NCBI GenBank assembly: GCA_001917855.1
Contig: MNEU01000005.1
Span: forward strand, 813 to 64,812
From: Armatimonadetes bacterium 13_1_40CM_64_14
GTDB lineage: Bacteria > Sysuimicrobiota > Sysuimicrobiia > Sysuimicrobiales > Kaftiobacteriaceae
Direction of reading: 5' to 3'
DNA length: 64,000 nt
A program made the position numbers and the translations under genes. Positions 7,347 through 60,333 of this stretch are shown piece by piece (the stretch's first letter is position 1; each line of letters opens with the position of its first letter). The notes beneath the pieces are model-generated. The model saw nothing but the letters and a program-made list of their open reading frames with translations, had not been told where the DNA came from and ran no database searches.

Positions 7347-8825
7347 TTAGGGAGCTGCCCACGACGGGATTTTCGCTGACCGGTCGGACTCCGGGGGGCG
7401 CCGGAGCACGACGAGCGCGGACGCGACCATCCGCTCAAAGCCGTCAGACGGCGCATTGACGATCCGGCCGCCGACGACCATTGTTGCGGAGCCGCCGCCA
7501 TCCAAATTCATGGCATCCTGGGCTCCCAAGCTAACCATCAGGTCGCCCATCTCTGGCAAGGTCATCCCCGGATTCTGACGACTTCCCCCGTCAACCGTCA
7601 CCAGCAGCAGTTTGCCCAACGCGGTGATGCCGACTGCCGTGCGCGCCGCCCGCCGCCAGGTCAGCGGCGACGAGAACGATTCCCACGCGAACGGGACGAA
7701 CGCCCGGCCGCTCTTGACGAGCCGGGGGCCTCCTCCCAACGCATTAATCATGTGGAGGTCCGGATCGAGATCGAGCGAGAGGGCCAGGCGCTGCCCAGGG
7801 TGCAGGCGCGCCAGAAACTCGGTATCCCCCTCGCTGGCGGTGAGCACGTATCCGTCCCGCGGGATGAGGATGCGTCCGGAGGGCACACGTTCCACGATGT
7901 CGCGCCGCACGACGGCGCCCAACGCGACGGGCGGGGTCAGGGGCCCGTACTGCGGCATGAAGACTGTTACCCCTCCGGGTTGGGGGAGGCTGTTCACCCC
8001 AGTGATGGGAGCCCACTGATCCTTCTGCGAGTAGATGCGTCCGGCAAATTGGAAGTCTCGAATCAGCGGCGGTCCCGCTTGCGGGAATGCCAGCACGGAG
8101 CGCCGAGGAAGCGGGAGGGACACGAGCTCGCCATTGATGACTACCAGCCCTAACGGCATGGCCGGACCGCCGAAGTAGCCGCCGTTCACAGCCGCAACCG
8201 CTTCGTGCCGTGTGGCTATCGTACTGGTCGTTTCCGTCCCGGAGACCATGTCGACAGCCAGGACAGGCCGGATCTCGAGTTCCGGATCTTCGGGATTGAT
8301 GCGCAGCAGGTGCACCCCGGTGGTGCCCGCCCGGGTGTGGGCTCGGAGCGTTTCGTACGCCACGCTTGAAGGCAAGGGAGCAGTTGCCAGCGCCGGAGGA
8401 ATGATGACCACGGTCACCGTCGCCGGGTCTGTGGTCACGTAGGTCTTGTACCGGGCCGGCCGGCGGAGGTCGATCCGGATGCGGGCCACGTCTGGGGTCA
8501 GTTGGTTGACGCGGACTCCCTGGACGTACGGATGCACCATCGTCTGCGATTGCCACTCGATCAGGTGAGCCTGCCAGAGGTCCACCAAGATACTGGTGGG
8601 CGAGGCCATCGTGCGGTAGGTAACCGGCGCGTCTAGGCGGATGATAACTTTGCCAATTTGAGCATCCGCCTCCCAGGTAATGGTCGTAACGCGGGCTGTC
8701 CTAACCTCCGCGGCGGGCAGAGGAGCCGCGCTTGCCATGAGAGCGCCGACAAGCGTCGGCAAGACGGCGCGTTGGACTGTGGTGAGGCTGCAGCTCATCC
8801 GACCCGGACACGTCCTCTGCTCCAA
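7347..8825 (-). CDS. secreted phosphodiester glycosidase family protein (NAGPA/DUF2233-like) with an N-terminal AMIN domain
   Basis: Signal-peptide-like N-terminus. AMIN-like segment (ITWEADAQIGKVIIRLDAPV...ILVDL). C-terminal ...AMNLDGGGSAT motif. Start uncertain. Confidence 0.5.
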   Translation of the reverse strand: MEQRTCPGRMSCSLTTVQRAVLPTLVGALMASAAPLPAAEVRTARVTTITWEADAQIGKVIIRLDAPVTYRTMASPTSILVDLWQAHLIEWQSQTMVHPYVQGVRVNQLTPDVARIRIDLRRPARYKTYVTTDPATVTVVIIPPALATAPLPSSVAYETLRAHTRAGTTGVHLLRINPEDPELEIRPVLAVDMVSGTETTSTIATRHEAVAAVNGGYFGGPAMPLGLVVINGELVSLPLPRRSVLAFPQAGPPLIRDFQFAGRIYSQKDQWAPITGVNSLPQPGGVTVFMPQYGPLTPPVALGAVVRRDIVERVPSGRILIPRDGYVLTASEGDTEFLARLHPGQRLALSLDLDPDLHMINALGGGPRLVKSGRAFVPFAWESFSSPLTWRRAARTAVGITALGKLLLVTVDGGSRQNPGMTLPEMGDLMVSLGAQDAMNLDGGGSATMVVGGRIVNAPSDGFERMVASALVVLRRPPESDRSAKIPSWAAP

Positions 8826-8940
8826 GCTGCACCCCCCGCGGGGGGCCGAGAAGTATCTGGGCCCGGGTCAGGGGGGTGCGCTGCGTGATCTCGCCCTTAC
8901 CATGCCCTGGTCGGACTAGAGCCAGTCTAAATAGGTCGGG

Positions 8941-8976
8941 GAAAAGAAAAGCGTCCCGGCCCACAAGCCAGGACGC
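8941..8976 (-). terminator. minus-strand intrinsic terminator-like hairpin (agcgtcc...ggacgct) followed by a U-tract
   Basis: The minus strand reads ...agcgtcctggcttgtgggccgggacgcttttcttttc. It lies between the IS481-like element and the glycosidase gene. Confidence 0.4.
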
Positions 8977-9137
8977 TGGGTGTTAGGCACAGACGGCAAG
9001 CCGTCTTACCCGAACAACAATCCTATCTGGTGGGCCGGGACCGGACTACACATCGTCGGCCTCACCTCCTTCCGTTTTCGCCATCTTCTGATGGCTAAAT
9101 CACGGTGAGCGTAGCATGGGGTCTGCGAGAGTGTCAA

Positions 9138-17136: not shown

Positions 17137-18309
17137 TCATTGCGACGGGCTCAGTGGTCCTGTGGCGATGACGGCAATGCGGTGCTCGACGTCGGAGGGT
17201 AGGAGGTGGATCCCCGCCGGGAAGGCTGCATGGTGCTGGACCATGAACTCGATTCCCGCCAGCATCAGTGCCGAGGTGAGATCGAAAGCGTCCAAGGGGT
17301 CGCCGAATCCGGCGGCTAAATTCAACATTGCGCCCTTTGCTAGCAGGTAGACGGTCCTCCCTTCGACCGCGACCTCCTCGATTGCCGGGCGAACCTCGCG
17401 CGTCGGGTACCGTCGCAGGGCAGGGATGTCGATCTCAAGATTGGAGTGGCCCGCATTCGCGAGGATGCACCCGTCGGCAAGGTGCGGGAAGTCGTCTGCG
17501 CCGAGGACGCGGTCGCACCCCGTGGCCGTGACGACAACGCCGGCACGCGCGAGGCCTTCCCGCATCGAGACGGGTTCGCCCCCTTGCTGACGGGCCAGCA
17601 CGAGGCGAACGGGGTCGATGTCACAGACCATGACCCGGGCGCCGAGCAGCCGTGCGTACTCGGCGATCCCCTGTCCGACCAGCCCATATCCGATCACTAG
17701 GACCCTCCGCGCGTACAACGTGAGCGCCGTGACGTTGATGAAAGTGTGCCATACCATCAGGCCCACGAGATAGCGGTTGTGCAGCCCTTGTTTCAGTGTC
17801 AGGCCGTCCCAGTTGAACACGGGGACGGGGAGCCGGAGAGCCTGCAGCCGGAGGATGCCGCTACCCGTGGCCTCCATCCCGGCCCGGAGCGTCTGGCGGG
17901 ATGTCGATCCGTCGCGGACGACCGCCGCGAGGAGCTCGCCTCCCATCTCGCTCACGAATTCGCACTCGTGCGACAACGCCCACCGAAAGCCCTCCTGACG
18001 TTCAGCCTCGGTCATCCCCGCCCAGGCGTACACCTTGGCGCCGCGCGCGGCCATCAACGCCGCCACGCCATCGCGCGTCGTGTGAGGGTTGCAGCCCAGG
18101 ACGACGACTTGGGCTCCCGCCTGGACGAGCGCCTCGACCACGGGGACCATCTTGATGTCCAGGTGGACGTTCAAACCGAGGCGGCGGCCGCGCAGCGTCG
18201 TGCGGGAAAGATCGGCTGCCACGCGTCGTGTGAGAGGGATGTAGCGCTGCAGCCAGGGGAGGTCTGCTTCAGCCGCAGCGGCGGCAGACGGGTCTTTGAT
18301 GCGTGTCAT
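17137..18309 (-). CDS. adenosylhomocysteinase-family NAD-binding protein (short form)
   Basis: Rossmann motif VIGYGLVGQGIA. 390 aa, shorter than classical AhcY. Confidence 0.5.
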   Translation of the reverse strand: MTRIKDPSAAAAAEADLPWLQRYIPLTRRVAADLSRTTLRGRRLGLNVHLDIKMVPVVEALVQAGAQVVVLGCNPHTTRDGVAALMAARGAKVYAWAGMTEAERQEGFRWALSHECEFVSEMGGELLAAVVRDGSTSRQTLRAGMEATGSGILRLQALRLPVPVFNWDGLTLKQGLHNRYLVGLMVWHTFINVTALTLYARRVLVIGYGLVGQGIAEYARLLGARVMVCDIDPVRLVLARQQGGEPVSMREGLARAGVVVTATGCDRVLGADDFPHLADGCILANAGHSNLEIDIPALRRYPTREVRPAIEEVAVEGRTVYLLAKGAMLNLAAGFGDPLDAFDLTSALMLAGIEFMVQHHAAFPAGIHLLPSDVEHRIAVIATGPLSPSQ

Positions 18310-27790: not shown

Positions 27791-28990
27791 CGGGACCAGA
27801 GCAGAGGCGATTATCCCCTCGACGTAGGGTGGGGACTTGTCGCTGCCCTTGCGGACGCGACCATCGGCGCATCGCCACGCGCCCAGGCACGCACGTTCCG
27901 TGCCGCGATGACGTCGGCCGGCTCCTCATGCCCGCACCGACGACAGCTGAATGCTGCTTGCGAGCGGCGGTTCCGCTTGTCCACATGACCACAGACCGGG
28001 CAGGTGCGACTCGTGTTGGCCGGATCCACGAAGACGACCGGTATCCCGGCTTTCGCGGCCTTGTAGACAATGAACTGCCGCAGTTGTCCGAACGCCCAGT
28101 TGTGCAGTCGGGCCCGCTGGCGGCGCCTGGCCTTTATCCTGTCGCGGATGCCCCGGAGGTCTTCCAGGGCGATACCGCAGCAGAGCCGTTGCGCCTTGGC
28201 CACTACCCGTTTGGCGATCCTGTGGTTGACATCCCGCTGGTATCGCCCTTGCCGTCCGGAGATTTGCCTGAGCTTGCGCCGCGCCGCCCGCGTGCCCCGC
28301 TTCTGCAGGCGAGCGCGCCGGTGGACGTAGATCCGCCGTTTTTCTTCCACCGCCTGACCGCTGTAGGCCTCCGCCTCGCTGTCCGTGAGCAGGTTCACCG
28401 TCCCCAGGTCGCAGCCCAGGTAATCCTGCACGGGGGCGGGGGGCGGGACGTCCACCTCCACCACCTGATGCAGGATGAACTTGCCCCGCCGATAGCACAG
28501 CACCGCCTGATGGCGACTGGACAACCAGGCCTGCGGGCGGGCGGTAAACGGGATCCGAAAGCCATACATCGACACCGTGCCGTCGCGCTTGTACCGATGC
28601 TTGTAGATGGGGATCGCCCCGCGTCGCCGAAAGGTGGCTTGGTGCTGTCGGCGCTGTTTGTTGCGGTACGCGTAGGCGACCTTGCGGATGACCACGACAG
28701 TTGCTGCCGCGGGGATCTGAAACCGCTCCCGTACCTCCCGATAGGCGCGGCGCTGGAGAGGCAACCAGTGCCAGAGGCGTTCTCGGAACGCGACGCCGGA
28801 CAGCCAGTTCGCCGCGGCATTGAACCGCTCGAGCCAGGCGATCAGCTGGGCGGGGTCAGGCGGGTGCAGACGGACGGTCTCAACATGATCCATCAGTATA
28901 TCAGCAGTATAATACTTTACGCGTCACGTGGCAACTACCTACGTCGCCAAAGCAGATATTCTTGCTTCATGTCTTTATGGACGACCCCGT
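27786..28990 (-). mobile_element. IS1341-like TnpB-only element, copy 2 (complete). It has an AT-richer left end and no tnpA
   Basis: Full-length tnpB. Similarity to copy 1 stops about 5 nt past the stop codon. The lower-GC 28894-28990 segment is the presumed left end, and its boundary is approximate. Confidence 0.6.
27811..28893 (-). CDS. tnpB: IS200/IS605-family TnpB (OrfB), full length
   Basis: 360 aa. RuvC-I/II/III motifs and a zinc finger. Paralogue of the copy at 1..779. Confidence 0.9.
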   Translation of the reverse strand: MDHVETVRLHPPDPAQLIAWLERFNAAANWLSGVAFRERLWHWLPLQRRAYREVRERFQIPAAATVVVIRKVAYAYRNKQRRQHQATFRRRGAIPIYKHRYKRDGTVSMYGFRIPFTARPQAWLSSRHQAVLCYRRGKFILHQVVEVDVPPPAPVQDYLGCDLGTVNLLTDSEAEAYSGQAVEEKRRIYVHRRARLQKRGTRAARRKLRQISGRQGRYQRDVNHRIAKRVVAKAQRLCCGIALEDLRGIRDRIKARRRQRARLHNWAFGQLRQFIVYKAAKAGIPVVFVDPANTSRTCPVCGHVDKRNRRSQAAFSCRRCGHEEPADVIAARNVRAWARGDAPMVASARAATSPHPTSRG

Positions 28991-39249: not shown

Positions 39250-39378
39250 TCAGCGCGCGAGATATTTGGCGGAAAGCAGGGGTGGCGCACGCCGTTGCGA
39301 ATGTGTTGGAGGGTGCGGCGCTCACGGTGATAACGGCCCGTCGCGCCGGAACGCGGGAAAGACCCGAAGGAGGTGGGG

Positions 39379-39885
39379 ATGGACACCATCGGGCACCACT
39401 ATATCGCCGAAGCATCCGGGTGTACGTCCGGTGTCATCGGGAAGATCGAGGCGGTGGAGCGGATCCTGGTCCGCGCCGCGGAAATTGCAGGTGTCCATGT
39501 GTGGTCCACTTCATTTCACCGGTTCAACCCCAGCGGGGTGTCAGGTGTCATCGTCATCTCCGAGTCCCACATGTCCGTGCACACGTGGCCCGAAGTCGGC
39601 TACGCGGCGCTGGACATTTTCACTTGCGGCGATTCTGCTAAGCCCCAGAAGGCGCTGCAGTGGGCGCTGAGAGAGTTCGGGGCCACTAATGTCCACATCA
39701 CTGAGGTCACGCGCGGCTTGGAGGAAGGCGACAAGGTCTTCTTCCACAGCATTGTGACGTGGGAGGAAGAACTGTTACGCCGCGCCGTGAACGGACAAAA
39801 GGCCCCCGGTCGTCGTCCCGCGCCGCGGCGTGCCGCGGAGGTCGGGACGGGACGGCGTCGCCTGCCCGCTCCCCCCGAAGCCTAG
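39379..39885 (+). CDS. speH: S-adenosylmethionine decarboxylase proenzyme (class 1b)
   Basis: Self-processing site VIVISESHMSVHTWPE. Confidence 0.85.
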   Translation: MDTIGHHYIAEASGCTSGVIGKIEAVERILVRAAEIAGVHVWSTSFHRFNPSGVSGVIVISESHMSVHTWPEVGYAALDIFTCGDSAKPQKALQWALREFGATNVHITEVTRGLEEGDKVFFHSIVTWEEELLRRAVNGQKAPGRRPAPRRAAEVGTGRRRLPAPPEA

Positions 39886-45718: not shown

Positions 45719-45747
45719 TTGACTTGCGAGAAGCTGCATGATATACA
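45719..45747 (+). promoter_or_regulatory. promoter-like TTGACT-17-TATACA (with upstream TG) driving the S-box leader
   Basis: cccTTGACTtgcgagaagctgcatgaTATACAct lies about 20 nt upstream of the riboswitch P1 stem. Confidence 0.4.
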
Positions 45748-45765
45748 CTGAAGAAAATTGCATAC

Positions 45766-45910
45766 GTGCTCTTATCAAGAGTGGGTGAGGGACGGGCCCG
45801 ATGATCCCCGGCAGCCTGTGCGGCACGCCGTCACGCCCGTGCGTGATGTGACCGATGTGTCGTCGCAAGGTGCCAACTCCTACGGAACCAATTCCGAGAG
45901 ATAAGAGGGA
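45766..45910 (+). ncRNA. SAM-I (S-box) riboswitch aptamer
   Basis: Near-consensus cuCUUAUCAAGAGuGGgGGAGGGAcgGGCCCGAUGAucCCCGGCAgCC ... GGUGCCAAcUCCuacgG ... GAGAUAAGAG. P1 strands 45768-45778 / 45899-45908. Confidence 0.85.
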
Positions 45911-45914
45911 CCGG

Positions 45915-45950
45915 TACCCCTCCAATAGGAATTGGGAGGGGATTTTTTGT
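45915..45950 (+). terminator. S-box expression-platform terminator (ccccucc...ggagggg plus U6)
   Basis: tacccctccaataggaattgggaggggattttttg lies immediately before the thrB ATG at 45956. Confidence 0.7.
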
Positions 45951-45955
45951 TGGTT

Positions 45956-46849
45956 ATGGTAACCGTCCGCGTCCCGGCTACAATTGCGAATCTCGGACCA
46001 GCCTTCGACACAGTAGGCGTCGCGGTGACCGTCTACAACACGGTGCATCTCACCCTGGCAGCCTCAGCACATGTGCAGGTGCAGGGATATGGTCAGGGGA
46101 GCGTGCCAGAGGATTCATCCAACCTGGTCTATCGTGCGGCGGCGGAAGTTACTACCCGGGCGGGACGCACGAGTGCCTTTGCGCTGCGGTGTCATAACGA
46201 CATTCCGCCCGGCCGTGGACTGGGAAGCAGCGCCGCGGCCGTGGTCGGCGGCGCGGTCGCGGCCAACGAGGTTCTCGGTCGCCCGCTCAACCAGGAGGAC
46301 CTGTTGGATTTGACCTGGCAGATGGAAGGACACGCGGATAACGCTGCCCCGGCGCTGCTGGGGGGTGTGGTCCTGGCCGATGTGAGCGATGGCGCCGTAC
46401 GGTGGACGCGGATCGTGCCGACCTGGGATGTTGCGCTGGTCGTCGCCGTGCCGGAATTCTGCGTCGCCACCGACCGCGCGCGGGCGGCGCTGCCGCTTCG
46501 CGTGCCCTTGACCGATGCGGTGACCAACATCAGCCACACCGCGTGGCTGGTGACGGCGATGTTGACAGGACGCCCCGACCTTTTGACCACCGCGATGGAT
46601 GACCGACTGCATCAGCCGTATCGCCGGAGCTTGGTGCCGGGGATGGAGGAGGTGTTCGCTGCCGCCCGCGCGGCCGGCGCGTATGGGGCCGCGTTGTGCG
46701 GGAGCGGACCGTCGGTGCTGGCCGTAGTTCCGGCCGCGAAAGCCGACCGCGTCGGCCAGTCCATGGTGGCAACGTTTGCGGGGCACGGACACGCGGCGAG
46801 CTACATCCGCGTCAACATCGACGAGCACGGGGCGACGCTTATCCCCTGA
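45956..46849 (+). CDS. thrB: homoserine kinase (GHMP family)
   Basis: PATIANLGPAFD and GRGLGSSAAAVVGG GHMP motifs. Confidence 0.85.
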   Translation: MVTVRVPATIANLGPAFDTVGVAVTVYNTVHLTLAASAHVQVQGYGQGSVPEDSSNLVYRAAAEVTTRAGRTSAFALRCHNDIPPGRGLGSSAAAVVGGAVAANEVLGRPLNQEDLLDLTWQMEGHADNAAPALLGGVVLADVSDGAVRWTRIVPTWDVALVVAVPEFCVATDRARAALPLRVPLTDAVTNISHTAWLVTAMLTGRPDLLTTAMDDRLHQPYRRSLVPGMEEVFAAARAAGAYGAALCGSGPSVLAVVPAAKADRVGQSMVATFAGHGHAASYIRVNIDEHGATLIP

Positions 46850-46915
46850 AGCGATCCCCCTTCCGGAGGACGCGCGGGGAATGAAAGAGTGACGTGATCA
46901 ATGTGAGGCCGGATA

Positions 46916-48178
46916 ATGTTCGAAGCCAGATTCCCATCGGGGGAGACCATGCCTGAACAGCAATTGCGGTGTCGGGAGTGTAGCGCCATGTACGCGGCGG
47001 GGCCGCGCTATGTATGTGAACAGTGCTTTGGGCCCCTTGAGGTTGTCTACGACTATGCCGCGCTCGCCCGCCAGCCGCTGCGGCAGATAATCGAGACGAG
47101 CGTGCCGTCCATGTGGCGGTATGAGCCTCTGCTGCCCGTGCGCCGGGTGCCCGAGATCGATCTGGAGCCTGGCTATACCCCGTTACTGCCTGCGGGCCGG
47201 CTAGGGCGGACGTTGGGGCTGCGTCGCTTGTTTATCAAGAACGATAGCGTCAATCCCACGTGGTCGTTTAAAGATCGGGTCGTCGGCGTGGCGATGTCTG
47301 CGGCCCGTTCGTTCGGCTACGACGTCGTCGCCTGTGCCTCGACTGGGAACCTCGCTAACGCGGTGGCCGCGCACGCCGGTCGGGCGGGCATGCGGGCCTG
47401 TGTCTTTATTCCCAAGGGGCTGGAACGGGGAAAGGTCCTGGCGACGGCTGCGTACGGGGCCACTTTAGTGGAAGTAGACGGAACCTACGACGAGGTTAAC
47501 CGGCTGTGCGCGGAGATCGCCGAAGAGCACCGCTGGGCATTCGTCAACGTCAACCTGCGGCCCTACTATTCAGAAGGTGGGAAGACGCTCGGGTTCGAGG
47601 TCGCTGAACAGCTCGGCTGGCGGGCGCCCGATCACGTCGTGGTGCCTATCGCGTCGGGCAGTCTCCTCGTCAAGATCCACAAGGGTCTGACCGAGCTGCA
47701 AGCTGTCGGGCTGCTCGAGAGTGTGCCAACGCACGTCCATGGCGCCCAGCCGGCCGGGTGCGCGCCGGTGGCGACGGCGTTTGCTGAAGGGACTTCAGAT
47801 ATTCGGCCCGTCATCCCCAACACGCTCGCACGCTCGCTGGCCATTGGTACCCCTGCAGATGGCCGGTACGTGCTCCGCGTGGCTCGGCAAACGGGGGGCG
47901 CGATCGTGGCCGTGACGGATGACGAGATGGTCGCCAGCATCCAACTCCTTGCGGAGACGGAAGGGGTCTTTACGGAGACGGCCGGGGGTGTCACCATCGC
48001 GGCGTTGCGCGCATTGGCCGCCCGCGGAGCCTTCGGGGAGGACGACATCGTCGTCGCCTACATCACGGGGCAGGGGTTCAAGACCCTCGAGGCCGTCGCG
48101 GATGCGACGCGTCCTCCGATTGCCATCCGGGCGACGCTGAAGGACTTCGAGCGCAATGTCCTCGAGTTGGTAGCCTGA
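46916..48178 (+). CDS. threonine synthase-family PLP enzyme with an N-terminal Cys4 zinc ribbon. Candidate O-phosphohomoserine sulfhydrylase (MetM-like)
   Basis: PLP lysine motif NPTWSFKDR. CRECS...CEQC ribbon. Placed between thrB and a MoaD-like gene, behind a SAM riboswitch. Confidence 0.75.
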   Translation: MFEARFPSGETMPEQQLRCRECSAMYAAGPRYVCEQCFGPLEVVYDYAALARQPLRQIIETSVPSMWRYEPLLPVRRVPEIDLEPGYTPLLPAGRLGRTLGLRRLFIKNDSVNPTWSFKDRVVGVAMSAARSFGYDVVACASTGNLANAVAAHAGRAGMRACVFIPKGLERGKVLATAAYGATLVEVDGTYDEVNRLCAEIAEEHRWAFVNVNLRPYYSEGGKTLGFEVAEQLGWRAPDHVVVPIASGSLLVKIHKGLTELQAVGLLESVPTHVHGAQPAGCAPVATAFAEGTSDIRPVIPNTLARSLAIGTPADGRYVLRVARQTGGAIVAVTDDEMVASIQLLAETEGVFTETAGGVTIAALRALAARGAFGEDDIVVAYITGQGFKTLEAVADATRPPIAIRATLKDFERNVLELVA

Positions 48179-48206
48179 GGCCAGGCGGGGGACGGGGAGG
48201 ATCGGA

Positions 48207-48503
48207 ATGCCGACCGTGCGAATTCCGGCGCCGCTGCGAAAGCTGACCGGAGATCAACGCGTGGTGCAGGCCAGCGGGGCCACGCTCGCGGATTTGGTGA
48301 CAGATCTGGAGCGGCGTTTCCCAGGGATTAAAGGACGCATCATGAGTGCAGATGGCCAGGTCCACAGTTTTGTGAACATCTTCGTCGACGACCAGGATGT
48401 GCGGTTCTTGCAGGGGCTCGCCACCCCGCTGCGGGAGGAAGCGGAAATCGCCATCATCCCCGCGATGGCGGGCGGGATGGATCCAGTCCGGCCCCGGAGG
48501 TGA
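48207..48503 (+). CDS. MoaD/ThiS-family sulfur-carrier protein. Its Gly-Gly is followed by an 8-aa C-terminal extension (MetO/CysO-like)
   Basis: Beta-grasp-like ...EIAIIPAMAGG|MDPVRPRR. 98 aa. 28-nt gap after the thrC-like gene. Confidence 0.65.
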   Translation: MPTVRIPAPLRKLTGDQRVVQASGATLADLVTDLERRFPGIKGRIMSADGQVHSFVNIFVDDQDVRFLQGLATPLREEAEIAIIPAMAGGMDPVRPRR

Positions 48504-48831: not shown

Positions 48832-49347
48832 ATGACCGTGCGACGCAGGGTGATCCGTGTGGCGGTTGTGGTGGCGGTCATTGTGCTTGCCGCCTGGTGG
48901 TTGCTGCGTCCAGCTCGGGGCAGGGTTTCGGTGTACTTTGTGCGTGCCGAGGGCGCCCGCAGCACTTTGCAGGACGTTCCGCGCACGGTCGGGGAGCGGG
49001 GAGCGGAGGCCGTGTTGGCCGCAGCGATCCGCGAGTTGCTCGCGGGCCCCTCTGCGCAGGAACGAACTTCCGGCCTGACGACGGCGATTCCCGCAGGGAC
49101 CAAGTTACGCAGTCTGCGTATCGACAAAGCGATTGTGCTGCTCGATCTCAGCAGCGAGATCGAGTCGGGAGGCGGGAGCGCGATCATGCTGGCCCGGTTT
49201 TGGCAGCTCGTCTACACCGCAACCCAATTTCCTCAGGCGCCCCAGGTACGGATCCTCATAGACGGCGTGGCCAAGTCGGCCCTGGGGGGAGAAGGGGTGT
49301 TGATCGACCGGCCGGTGAGTCGGCCAGCCGCTCTCCCCGAGTTCTAG
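48832..49347 (+). CDS. GerMN-domain protein (membrane-anchored)
   Basis: N-terminal TM segment. GerMN-like VYFV..., AAIRELLAGP, TAIPAGTKL and DGVAKS...GEG motifs. Confidence 0.65.
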   Translation: MTVRRRVIRVAVVVAVIVLAAWWLLRPARGRVSVYFVRAEGARSTLQDVPRTVGERGAEAVLAAAIRELLAGPSAQERTSGLTTAIPAGTKLRSLRIDKAIVLLDLSSEIESGGGSAIMLARFWQLVYTATQFPQAPQVRILIDGVAKSALGGEGVLIDRPVSRPAALPEF

Positions 49348-49402: not shown

Positions 49403-50560
49403 TTGTCAGGAAGTTCTCTTAGGAAGTCCTGTGGGGGAGTTGTCGAGTCCGTCGTGCCCAGTGAAGTTTTCGCCGAAGACATCGAGGCCCTGCTCGAACG
49501 CCTAGATGGCGTCAGCTCCGCCCGCGTCGTGGCCAACGACGCGGGCGAGATCGCGTCCATTTACGTGACGGCCGCCACCACAAGCGAGGAGCCGGTGGTG
49601 CGGCGGATGATTGCCTCCGCCCTCATGTCCCGCTATTCTCTCGCCGTCGACGGGTGGCGCATTCGCATCGCTCGCTTGCAGACCGAGGCTCCCGTGCGCA
49701 CATGGCGTCCCCGGCGCGTGGATGAATCGCTGTCGGGGACGGCCGTCCAGGCGCTAGTGGAACTGGAACCGGTGCACGCGGAGGGCGGGACCCTGGTCGG
49801 TCGCGCCCGATCCTTGCCTGACCGCACCAACCGTCTGCGCGGCTTGGTCTTGGCCACGCTCGACGCTCTGAAGTCTGTCTTGAATGCCGAAGAACGCCGG
49901 GGCGCACTGGAGTCGATCGCCATGCAGCCGCTTGCGGGGCGCGACACAGTGGTGGTCGCCGTTTCCATCGGGTCACCGACGGGCGCCAAACTGTGTGTAG
50001 GATCGGCGGTGGTCGAAGGGAGCGAAGCCGACGCAGTCATCGCGGCAACGCTCGATGCTGTAGGAAAGCGCGGCGTGAAACCGCAACAACGGGGGTGGGG
50101 AATGAAGGATCGTCGTGATGAGCTGGAATCGATGCGGGCACACTACCGACGCCTTCGGGAGCCCCAGCGACAAATGCCGGAGCTCGCGCCCGAAGACGAC
50201 GGAGCCAATAGCGGGGCCGACGACGCAGTACCCGACCAGGCGCAAATTCGACCTGAGCGGCCGGGCGGTGCCGCCATGGCAAGCGGGGCACGGCCTGATG
50301 CGGAGGCGCGGACCGATCAGCCAGCCGCGCGGTCTGCGCAGCGCAGTTCTATGGAAGACGAGTACCTGCGCAGCCTCGTCTCCACGAGCACGCCCGTGCA
50401 CATCCGGTGCCGCGACGGGTACGAGATCCCCGAGGCGGTTATCAAGGATGTCGGGACGTACTCGGTCCTGGTAGAAAGCGACACCGGCCGGGAGCTCGTC
50501 TTTAAGCACGGCATCCTCTCGATCCGTCCGCTGCGGGCTGTGAACCACCTGAGATCCTAA
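49403..50560 (+). CDS. hfq: Hfq (Sm-fold) domain protein with a ~250-aa N-terminal extension and a low-complexity linker. The Hfq domain is roughly 50352..50560
   Basis: The C-terminal 69 aa (MEDEYLRSLVSTSTPVHIRCRDGYEIPEAVIKDVGTYSVLVESDTGRELVFKHGILSI) match the Hfq Sm1/Sm2 pattern (YKHAI). The upstream in-frame region has a protein-like composition. Start is an alternative codon or uncertain. Confidence 0.55.
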   Translation: MSGSSLRKSCGGVVESVVPSEVFAEDIEALLERLDGVSSARVVANDAGEIASIYVTAATTSEEPVVRRMIASALMSRYSLAVDGWRIRIARLQTEAPVRTWRPRRVDESLSGTAVQALVELEPVHAEGGTLVGRARSLPDRTNRLRGLVLATLDALKSVLNAEERRGALESIAMQPLAGRDTVVVAVSIGSPTGAKLCVGSAVVEGSEADAVIAATLDAVGKRGVKPQQRGWGMKDRRDELESMRAHYRRLREPQRQMPELAPEDDGANSGADDAVPDQAQIRPERPGGAAMASGARPDAEARTDQPAARSAQRSSMEDEYLRSLVSTSTPVHIRCRDGYEIPEAVIKDVGTYSVLVESDTGRELVFKHGILSIRPLRAVNHLRS

Positions 50561-59424: not shown

Positions 59425-60333
59425 ATGCCTGTAGAGGTGGGCAAGCCGGTGGAGGGAGGAAAGCCGGTGAAGGAGCTCCGTCTCAACGCCTACGCGAAAG
59501 TGAATTTGACCCTGAATGTCTTGGGGGAGCGCCCCGACGGCTATCACGAAATTGAATCCGTGATGCATACCATCGCGCTGCATGATTCGCTCACGCTGCG
59601 CGAGGCCGGCGCGGGGGTAGAGGTCATCGCGCATGGCAACGAGGTCCCGAGCGACCATCGCAACCTCGTAGCGCGCGCCGCAGCGCTCCTGCGAGAAACC
59701 TTCGGCGTGGAGCGCAATGTCCAGATCGAGCTCACCAAAAGCGTCCCCGTGGCCGCCGGGTTAGGCGGCGGCAGCTCGGACGCGGCCGTGACGTTGCTCG
59801 GGCTGGCCCAGATGTGGAAGCTTCGCGTCGACGGTCGGGATCTTCTGGCGCTCGCCGGGAAATTGGGATCGGATATCCCCTTTTTCCTGGAAGGTGGAGC
59901 GGCGATTGCCCGCGGGCGGGGGGAACGGCTGACCCTTCTGCCGCCGTTGCCGACGACATGGATGGTTCTGGCCCGGCCCCGCGTGGCTGTCTCGACCGAG
60001 TGGGCTTACCGACAGTTCAACCCAATGGTGGTCAGCTCGCGCCCGGACTCCGTTGCGATGGGTACAGCGATCAAGCGGGAAGACGTCCGCGAGGTAGGCC
60101 GGCTGCTCGCCAATGTGTTTGAGCCCCTGATCTACTCCGTGCACCCGGGCGTGGCCGACCTGAAGGCGCGTCTGCTGCGAGGGGAATGCTATGGGGCGGG
60201 TCTGAGCGGGACAGGCCCCACGGTCTTCGGGCTTATGGCTAATGAAGCAGCTGCGCGCAAAGTCGCCGCCGATCTCCAAGCTCTTCCCGATGTGGATGTG
60301 CAGGTGACGCGCACGTTTGCAGAGATGCGGTAA
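59425..60333 (+). CDS. ispE: 4-diphosphocytidyl-2-C-methyl-D-erythritol kinase
   Basis: AKVNLTL, PVAAGLGGGSSDAA GHMP motifs. The start may be a few codons downstream. Confidence 0.85.
   Translation: MPVEVGKPVEGGKPVKELRLNAYAKVNLTLNVLGERPDGYHEIESVMHTIALHDSLTLREAGAGVEVIAHGNEVPSDHRNLVARAAALLRETFGVERNVQIELTKSVPVAAGLGGGSSDAAVTLLGLAQMWKLRVDGRDLLALAGKLGSDIPFFLEGGAAIARGRGERLTLLPPLPTTWMVLARPRVAVSTEWAYRQFNPMVVSSRPDSVAMGTAIKREDVREVGRLLANVFEPLIYSVHPGVADLKARLLRGECYGAGLSGTGPTVFGLMANEAAARKVAADLQALPDVDVQVTRTFAEMR

Follow-up and report, generated by a model that had tools for sequence, protein, structure and literature searches.

A SAM-I riboswitch ahead of thrB and metM- and metO-like genes suggests homocysteine synthesis from O-phosphohomoserine in an uncultured soil bacterium

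The DNA considered here, referred to below as the window, is a stretch of 64,000 nucleotides (nt) of contig MNEU01000005.1 (assembly GCA_001917855.1) from Armatimonadetes bacterium 13_1_40CM_64_14. It contains an S-adenosylmethionine (SAM)-I riboswitch followed by three genes on the same strand: thrB, which encodes homoserine kinase, a metM-like gene for a pyridoxal 5'-phosphate (PLP) enzyme of the threonine synthase (ThrC) family, and a metO-like gene for a small sulfur carrier (Table 1). We think it probable, at roughly 80%, that these elements make up a SAM-repressed operon that turns homoserine into homocysteine via O-phosphohomoserine. Both the pathway and its control by SAM have already been published; what sets this locus apart is the presence of thrB in the SAM-controlled unit and a tail of eight residues at the end of the carrier. 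The same three genes are also found together in independent assemblies, on one ENA contig and on one JGI contig.

A thiocarboxylate route from O-phosphohomoserine to homocysteine, which proceeds via MetO, Mec, MoeZ and MetM and uses the MetO-thiocarboxylate as sulfur donor, has been described for Streptomyces albulus, as summarised by GapMind 2026 (bioRxiv 10.1101/2024.10.14.618325, citing Hasebe et al. 2024). The same source points out that MetM is often misannotated as threonine synthase (bioRxiv 10.1101/2024.10.14.618325). According to a study of a Microcystis homologue, which again draws on Hasebe et al. (2024, Appl Environ Microbiol 90:e01247-24), S. albulus metM has a SAM riboswitch upstream (PMC12172450). 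That study also locates metM homologues in cyanobacteria beside a metO-like gene and gives 51.6% identity to MetM for the Microcystis protein (PMC12172450). A preliminary description of the window, made from the sequence alone, had pointed to a streptomycete MetM/MetO route of this kind, and as far as these two accounts relay the original work, SAM riboswitch, metM and metO are indeed reported in S. albulus (PMC12172450; 10.1101/2024.10.14.618325).

To place the window in a wider context, we surveyed one-genome-per-species bacterial assemblies from other phyla for loci coding relatives of its ThrC-like protein, seeding the survey with an alignment of eight enzyme homologues. The 80 loci recovered (designated L plus a number here, as are relatives from the window's own lineage) span Chloroflexota, Acidimicrobiia and other Actinomycetota, Cyanobacteria, Nitrospinota, a Manganitrophaceae metagenome-assembled genome (MAG) and an Aquificaceae MAG. 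A covariance model built from six aptamers was run over all loci.

Table 1. Coordinates of the riboswitch, its expression platform, the operon genes and the tailed carriers of the lineage (window positions unless a locus is named).
Feature	Position	Strand	Basis and remarks
Promoter-like TTGACT, 17-nt spacer, TATACA	45719-45747	+	Spotted by eye; weak evidence
SAM-I (S-box) riboswitch aptamer	45769-45907	+	Rfam RF00162; 42-nt insertion in P3
Antiterminator	45888-45935	+	45888-45895 pairs with 45928-45935, enclosing 45905-45909 paired with 45918-45922
Intrinsic terminator	45917-45948	+	Hairpin 45917-45941, then U6 at 45943-45948
thrB	45956-46849	+	TIGR00191; GHMP kinase N and C domains
metM-like gene, ThrC-family PLP enzyme with N-terminal Cys4 zinc ribbon	46916-48178	+	PF00291, TIGR00260; 420 aa
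metO-like gene, CysO/ThiS-type sulfur carrier	48207-48503	+	PF02597 ThiS, E 3e-17; 98 aa
Tailed carriers of the lineage	Window 48474-48503 (tail region); L088 5337-5687; L089 5274-5582; L090 5263-5574; L091 5312-5602; L005 11244-11528

The preliminary description had placed a near-consensus S-box aptamer at 45766-45910, with a terminator of its own and a homoserine kinase gene directly behind it, and all three elements are present. The aptamer matches Rfam model RF00162 over its full length (model positions 1-108) with 77.6 bits against a gathering score of 44.4, that is, 33 bits above it (E 1.6e-16), and it is the sole Rfam match in the whole window. Its base pairing was evaluated across 27 aptamers that precede metM or thrB-metM, considering 22 pairs; note that stem P4 lies outside the model used here but is aligned in the Rfam match. 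Standard pairs occupy 92.9% of base-pair cells, compared to 33-47% in slid controls, and 10 of the 22 pairs show compensatory changes, with both sides altered. None of 500 shuffles attains these pairing values. Some of the aptamers carry large insertions in P3 (window 45812-45865, L088 2820-2961, L089 2791-2949, L010 1777-1975) and total 139-199 nt, compared to 102-110 nt in the others; the insertion in the window folds as an extended hairpin.

The terminator is evident from folding. Its hairpin, CCCCUCCAAU/AGGA/AUUGGGAGGGG, begins ten bases past the aptamer and is followed by a run of six U, and the 51-nt piece 45905-45955 folds at -16.3 kcal/mol. A consensus terminator scan missed the hairpin because of a one-base bulge. 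The 3' arm, GGGAGGGG, likely doubles as the ribosome-binding site of thrB. The minimum free energy fold of the leader contains an antiterminator, at -14.3 kcal/mol, which takes up the 3' strands of aptamer stems P4 and P1 along with part of both terminator arms, so that the two folds of the platform are mutually exclusive. With these two aptamer strands engaged, the antiterminator is also incompatible with the SAM-bound aptamer. A homologous terminator-like hairpin is present in five relatives (L003, L088, L089, L090 and L091), followed by four or five U in L088-L091 and by no U-run in L003. Further upstream, a promoter scan passed over the TTGACT-17-TATACA site, the final -10 base of which is A.

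Turning to the enzyme, the metM-like protein matches PF00291 (PALP) with 250 bits and TIGR00260, the thrC model, with 276 bits against a cut-off of 167; it narrowly misses a second ThrC model, NF006050, at 286.7 bits against 303. An N-terminal CxxC-11-CxxC motif spans residues 19-37, and its cysteines are kept in 84, 84, 85 and 85 of the 85 members of the clade described below, where the SFKDR motif with catalytic K119 is invariant. The preliminary description of a threonine synthase paralogue with an N-terminal Cys4 ribbon is thus accurate. The AlphaFold model (pLDDT 91) has the ThrC fold with a three-stranded N-terminal ribbon, residues 1-11 being disordered. Its structure matches are threonine synthases only, with no solved structure for a member of the metM-like clade among them. 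Because most homologues are 409-410 aa long, residues 1-11 are disordered and GGGGGAG lies just 5' of an ATG at 46949, the true start may be this ATG rather than 46916. Cysteate synthase was considered as an identity and rejected (59.6 bits against a cut-off of 324.9). NCBI lists the enzyme, at 100% identity, as 'threonine synthase [Armatimonadetes bacterium 13_1_40CM_64_14]'; a further database entry (P0027, 436 aa) combines ThiS and PALP domains, aligns with the window enzyme over 79% of its length at 100% identity, and could be either a gene-call artefact or a fused variant.

Model scores are of limited use in assigning this protein, as TIGR00260 does not tell the metM-like clade from canonical ThrC. 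A neighbour-joining tree (409 alignment columns, 500 bootstraps) does. Carrier-linked proteins, including that of the window, form one clade in 460 of 500 bootstraps, in which the window protein groups with actinomycete proteins that are linked to a riboswitch (Nonomuraea, Micromonosporaceae) and to which the cyanobacterial proteins also belong. This clade is split in all 500 bootstraps from ThrC of Aquifex, Bacillus, Thermus and Mycobacterium and from the canonical paralogues of L013 and L037, two genomes that have a canonical thrC alongside the metM-like gene. A phylogeny had been proposed as a check on the preliminary description, and it puts the ThrC-like protein outside canonical threonine synthases and inside the carrier-linked clade. 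With clade members from other lineages the window protein shares 51-59% identity, and with bacterial canonical ThrC 34-38%. We further defined clade-signature positions as those at which at least 95% of the 85 clade members agree on a residue other than that of the ThrC consensus; there are 21 of them, and the window protein has the clade residue at every one. Relative to T. thermophilus ThrC, T88 is replaced by L146, N157 by R215, R160 by Y218 and N188-A189 by S247-G248. We take T88 and R160 of the Thermus enzyme to be contacts to the substrate phosphate. We infer that the metM-like product is an O-phosphohomoserine-dependent homocysteine synthase. Orthology to S. albulus MetM is suggested indirectly, by the shared clade and by the same riboswitch-enzyme-carrier layout in actinomycetes.

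The carrier gene starts 28 nt past the metM-like gene, where a MoaD/ThiS-type carrier had been anticipated, and its product matches the ThiS family. The best solved relative is Mycobacterium tuberculosis CysO (3dwg_C, E 4.8e-21), which has the same ...AGG end, and the second best is the ThiS/MoaD-family protein 4n6e_B. An identity as bacterial MoaD was rejected (TIGR01682, 17.5 bits against a cut-off of 66), and no moaE, thiG or thiF lies near the gene. Among homologues the C-terminus ...PA[VMI]AGG is strictly conserved, and 59 of 81 end exactly at Gly-Gly. The window carrier reads ...IIPAMAGG and then continues for eight residues, MDPVRPRR. Tails after Gly-Gly in the window's lineage measure 0, 0, 4, 6, 8, 12, 13 and 26 residues, the carriers of L003 and L007 stopping at Gly-Gly like most of those in other phyla. 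Where a tail follows PAMAGG, Gly-Gly would therefore be exposed only after proteolysis. The variable tails suggest a removable pro-peptide, which may be cut by a peptidase encoded outside the window.

Across the survey, a metO-like homologue lies directly after the metM-like gene on the same strand in about 75 of 80 loci, with five loci lacking an adjacent carrier gene. In 21 of the 80, all of them from Chloroflexota or Actinomycetota, the metM-like gene is immediately preceded, on the coding strand, by a SAM-I aptamer, and Rfam thresholds confirm every survey aptamer that was re-tested. The covariance-model search yielded no SAM-I aptamer at the loci from Cyanobacteria or Nitrospinota. Nonomuraea gerenzanensis, which came from outside the survey, has the same arrangement: a SAM-I aptamer (68.7 bits, 7852-7993) is followed by the enzyme gene, the product of which is about 50% identical to the window protein, and then by a gene for a 91-aa ThiS-family protein. 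Four loci have a ThiF-family E1 gene directly 3' of the carrier gene (for example L052, 1904-2710), an arrangement that fits adenylation and thiocarboxylation of the carrier, and cyanobacterial loci have a separate second ThiS/MoaD-family gene upstream. The separate clade, the linkage to a carrier and the SAM-I aptamers upstream in Chloroflexota and Actinomycetota, Nonomuraea included, thus lend support to the MetM/MetO-type conversion of O-phosphohomoserine to homocysteine that the preliminary description had put forward. Its further suggestions, that this is the methionine entry point of the organism and that metA/metX-metY are absent, reach beyond what a window of 64 kb can bear out.

Some of these loci have peculiarities of their own. 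The Nonomuraea locus (L087) is on NZ_LT559118.1, an 11.85-Mb record named 'plasmid I' that is evidently a chromosome and that gave four ThrC-family matches in a tblastn search of plasmids. In nine Dehalococcoidia loci (L012, 8287-8556, and eight others) a 90-aa NIL-domain protein (PF09383) is coded between the metM-like and metO-like genes; this domain is known from the C-terminal end of MetN, a methionine transporter. The Chloroflexi locus L013 (2564-7542) comprises, in this order, a canonical thrC, thrB, an aptamer-like match, the metM-like and metO-like genes and a T-box leader (104 bits); the aptamer-like match is sub-threshold, at 30.8 bits with the six-aptamer model, and is unreported by Rfam.

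The place of thrB in the operon bears on the substrate. Its product scores 257.8 bits on TIGR00191 (cut-off 168.25) and 207.9 bits on NF002288 (cut-off 194); alternative TTG starts are found at 45932 and 45947. thrB is the first gene in every examined locus of the window's own lineage, and an aptamer precedes it in the window and in relatives L003, L088, L089, L090 and L091. In L003, L090 and L091 it overlaps or abuts the metM-like gene, which points to O-phosphohomoserine as the substrate of the encoded enzyme, and co-transcription of thrB can be regarded as independent, albeit circumstantial, genomic support for that substrate. Among the 80 survey loci from other lineages thrB adjoins the metM-like gene only in L013, and this Armatimonadota/ANGP1-like lineage is the only one in which it was observed within a SAM-controlled unit. 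The annotated open reading frames (ORFs) of the window include neither a second homoserine kinase nor a canonical thrC, metX, metY or metB. The other GHMP kinase of the window (59425-60333) was considered as a second homoserine kinase and rejected, as it is IspE.

How might the operon work? Homology, gene context and the published Streptomyces pathway suggest a scheme that covers substrate, sulfur donor, tail processing and the response to SAM. When SAM is low, the leader would form the antiterminator, and thrB, metM and metO would be transcribed. When SAM is high, P1 and P4 would be locked, the antiterminator would be blocked, and the terminator would form, ending transcription before thrB and also hiding the thrB ribosome-binding site. 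ThrB would phosphorylate homoserine, and the MetM-like PLP enzyme would swap the gamma-phosphate for sulfur from the C-terminal thiocarboxylate of the MetO-like carrier. The carrier would first shed its eight-residue tail to expose Gly-Gly, presumably through a JAMM peptidase, and an E1-type enzyme would then adenylate and sulfurate it, with both the tail-removing enzyme and the E1 coded elsewhere in the genome. Homocysteine would be released and subsequently methylated to methionine.

A number of observations argue against such an operon for methionine synthesis. The metM-like protein clears the cut-off of TIGR00260, a thrC equivalog model, and public records name it threonine synthase. In vitro, the Microcystis homologue reportedly acted mainly as a threonine synthase, of weak activity, and as a threonine deaminase (PMC12172450). 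Within the 64-kb window phmmer found no E1, a motif scan for a JAMM peptidase gave two hits only, both judged spurious, and no metE or metH is among the annotated ORFs. The relative L005 has no SAM-I aptamer, even with filters off. Streptomyces MetM itself was not retrieved: a protein search from the Nonomuraea homologue led to no sequences beyond Nonomuraea and other Streptosporangiales, and a tblastn search of plasmids returned only the mislabelled Nonomuraea chromosome and archaeal and rhizobial thrC. Finally, if the cell had no homoserine kinase besides this thrB, repression by SAM would deprive threonine synthesis of its precursor as well. At high SAM, O-phosphohomoserine for threonine might come from a second kinase (ThrB, HomK or ThrH) or from leaky termination; a dual-function enzyme is an unlikely answer, though one for which the weak activities of the Microcystis homologue leave some room (PMC12172450). 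That thrB is the sole homoserine kinase and the MetM-like protein the sole ThrC-family enzyme, so that one SAM-sensing RNA gates O-phosphohomoserine for both methionine and threonine, strikes us as improbable. Such a reading would require either a bifunctional enzyme or some other route to threonine.

As a side observation on L005, its locus (region 8897-9046) has the order thrB-metM-metO, its enzyme is 68% identical to that of the window, and a small gene for an AsnC-type ligand-binding domain lies divergently 148 nt upstream.

Several other explanations might account for the locus. It might be an ordinary thrB-thrC operon for threonine, or the enzyme might serve as both threonine and homocysteine synthase, with SAM gating both amino acids. 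The score on TIGR00260, the fold match to threonine synthases, the lack of a second thrB or thrC in the window and the in vitro activity of the cyanobacterial homologue (PMC12172450) would all be compatible with this. However, the protein belongs to a clade apart from canonical ThrC (500 of 500) and differs from it at 21 conserved residues, including the positions of T88 and R160; L013 and L037 hold a canonical thrC besides the metM-like gene; and neither SAM control nor a dedicated sulfur carrier has a role in threonine synthesis. We therefore consider a threonine operon decidedly unlikely. No more likely, in our judgement, is that the MetM-like enzyme uses free sulfide directly, in the manner of O-acetylhomoserine sulfhydrylase, with the carrier dispensable or working for another pathway. 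In that case the lack of E1 and JAMM genes in the window and the five loci without an adjacent carrier gene would come as no surprise, and Na2S was tried as a sulfur source in the Microcystis study (PMC12172450). Yet the carrier gene follows directly in about 75 of 80 genomes from five phyla, its ...PA[VMI]AGG end is strictly conserved, E1 genes are adjacent in four loci, and the MetO-thiocarboxylate is given as the donor in the published pathway, as relayed by GapMind (10.1101/2024.10.14.618325).

Alternatively, enzyme and carrier might make a different thiol, either cysteine from O-phosphoserine, like CysM/CysO, or a specialised metabolite. CysO is the nearest relative of the carrier and the enzyme is weakly similar to cysteate synthase (59.6 bits), but that score is far under 324.9 and the enzyme is of the ThrC rather than the CysK/CysM family. 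Moreover, the gene pair shares its transcript with a homoserine kinase gene, its regulator is a sensor of SAM, the compound in which the methionine branch ends, and the neighbours are housekeeping genes with no biosynthetic cluster, all of which makes another thiol very improbable. Least plausible of all is that the carrier is a MoaD or ThiS working in molybdopterin or thiamine synthesis, encoded beside the ThrC-like gene by chance. It does match the ThiS family of Pfam and, below cut-off, models of archaeal MoaD and SAMP1; against this, the moaD model TIGR01682 gives 17.5 bits where 66 are needed, moaE, thiG and thiF are missing nearby, the adjacency across phyla is beyond chance, and the cyanobacterial loci have their separate second ThiS/MoaD-family gene. 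We consider a chance neighbour of this kind extremely unlikely.

The operon for homocysteine synthesis that we favour resembles several known systems to varying degrees. In common with S. albulus MetM/MetO, as outlined in the accounts cited above, it has a SAM riboswitch upstream, a PLP enzyme homologous to ThrC, a ThiS/MoaD-type carrier gene directly after that of the enzyme and an annotation as threonine synthase. It departs from the S. albulus system, as presented there, in having thrB as the first riboswitch-controlled gene, in the eight-residue tail of its carrier, and in its host, an uncultured Armatimonadota/ANGP1-like soil bacterium. The expression platform is a transcription terminator in the window, whereas in three of the four actinobacterial loci that were folded only 13-23 nt separate the end of the aptamer from the start codon. 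In the CysM/CysO/Mec+ system of M. tuberculosis a protein thiocarboxylate attacks a phosphorylated amino acid and a JAMM hydrolase frees the product. The window carrier is a clear homologue of CysO (PDB 3DWG), but CysM belongs to the CysK family and uses O-phosphoserine, and CysM/CysO has no known riboswitch, whereas the window enzyme is of the ThrC family, has a zinc ribbon and probably acts on O-phosphohomoserine.

A thiocarboxylate donor for homocysteine was reportedly described by Krishnamoorthy and Begley in 2011 in Wolinella succinogenes (HcyS/HcyD/HcyF/MetY), where the carrier is said to be synthesised with extra C-terminal residues, which a JAMM peptidase cuts off. Unlike the window, that system uses O-acetylhomoserine and the fold-type I sulfhydrylase MetY and is not known to use a ThrC-type enzyme or O-phosphohomoserine. 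With the canonical thrB-thrC operon the window shares gene order, fold and the SFKDR catalytic lysine motif; it differs in its zinc ribbon, the 21 clade-specific substitutions, SAM control and the sulfur carrier. In plants, O-phosphohomoserine is shared by cystathionine gamma-synthase and threonine synthase, and SAM activates the latter. There, as would be the case here, O-phosphohomoserine is the common precursor of methionine and threonine and SAM sets the partition between them, but SAM would act on RNA in the window and acts allosterically on a protein in plants, and the sulfur chemistry differs.

A pathway described only in 2024 can thus be placed, with the confidence stated at the outset, in a soil lineage that is uncultured and goes by the label Armatimonadota or ANGP1, and the survey finds enzyme and carrier paired widely across Chloroflexota, Actinomycetota, Cyanobacteria and Nitrospinota. 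Every public record of these proteins that was examined reads 'threonine synthase', so that metabolic reconstructions of such genomes will wrongly report a gap in methionine synthesis or a duplicate threonine synthase.

Two further genes in the window relate to SAM metabolism, neither with a riboswitch. An adenosylhomocysteinase-like gene lies at 17137-18309 on the minus strand (NF004005, 275.1 bits against a cut-off of 275), and a SAM decarboxylase gene, which is syntenic with the operon in relatives, lies at 39373-39885 on the plus strand (TIGR03330, 132 bits). An IS605 OrfB/TnpB-type gene is located at 27811-28893 on the minus strand, with Pfam domains OrfB_IS605 and Cas12f1-like_TNB on the matching ENA contig. 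Downstream of the operon, on the plus strand, are genes for a Germane-domain protein (48832-49347) and for a protein of roughly 370-385 aa that ends in an Hfq-like domain (49403-50560), a pair that is kept downstream in all relatives examined.

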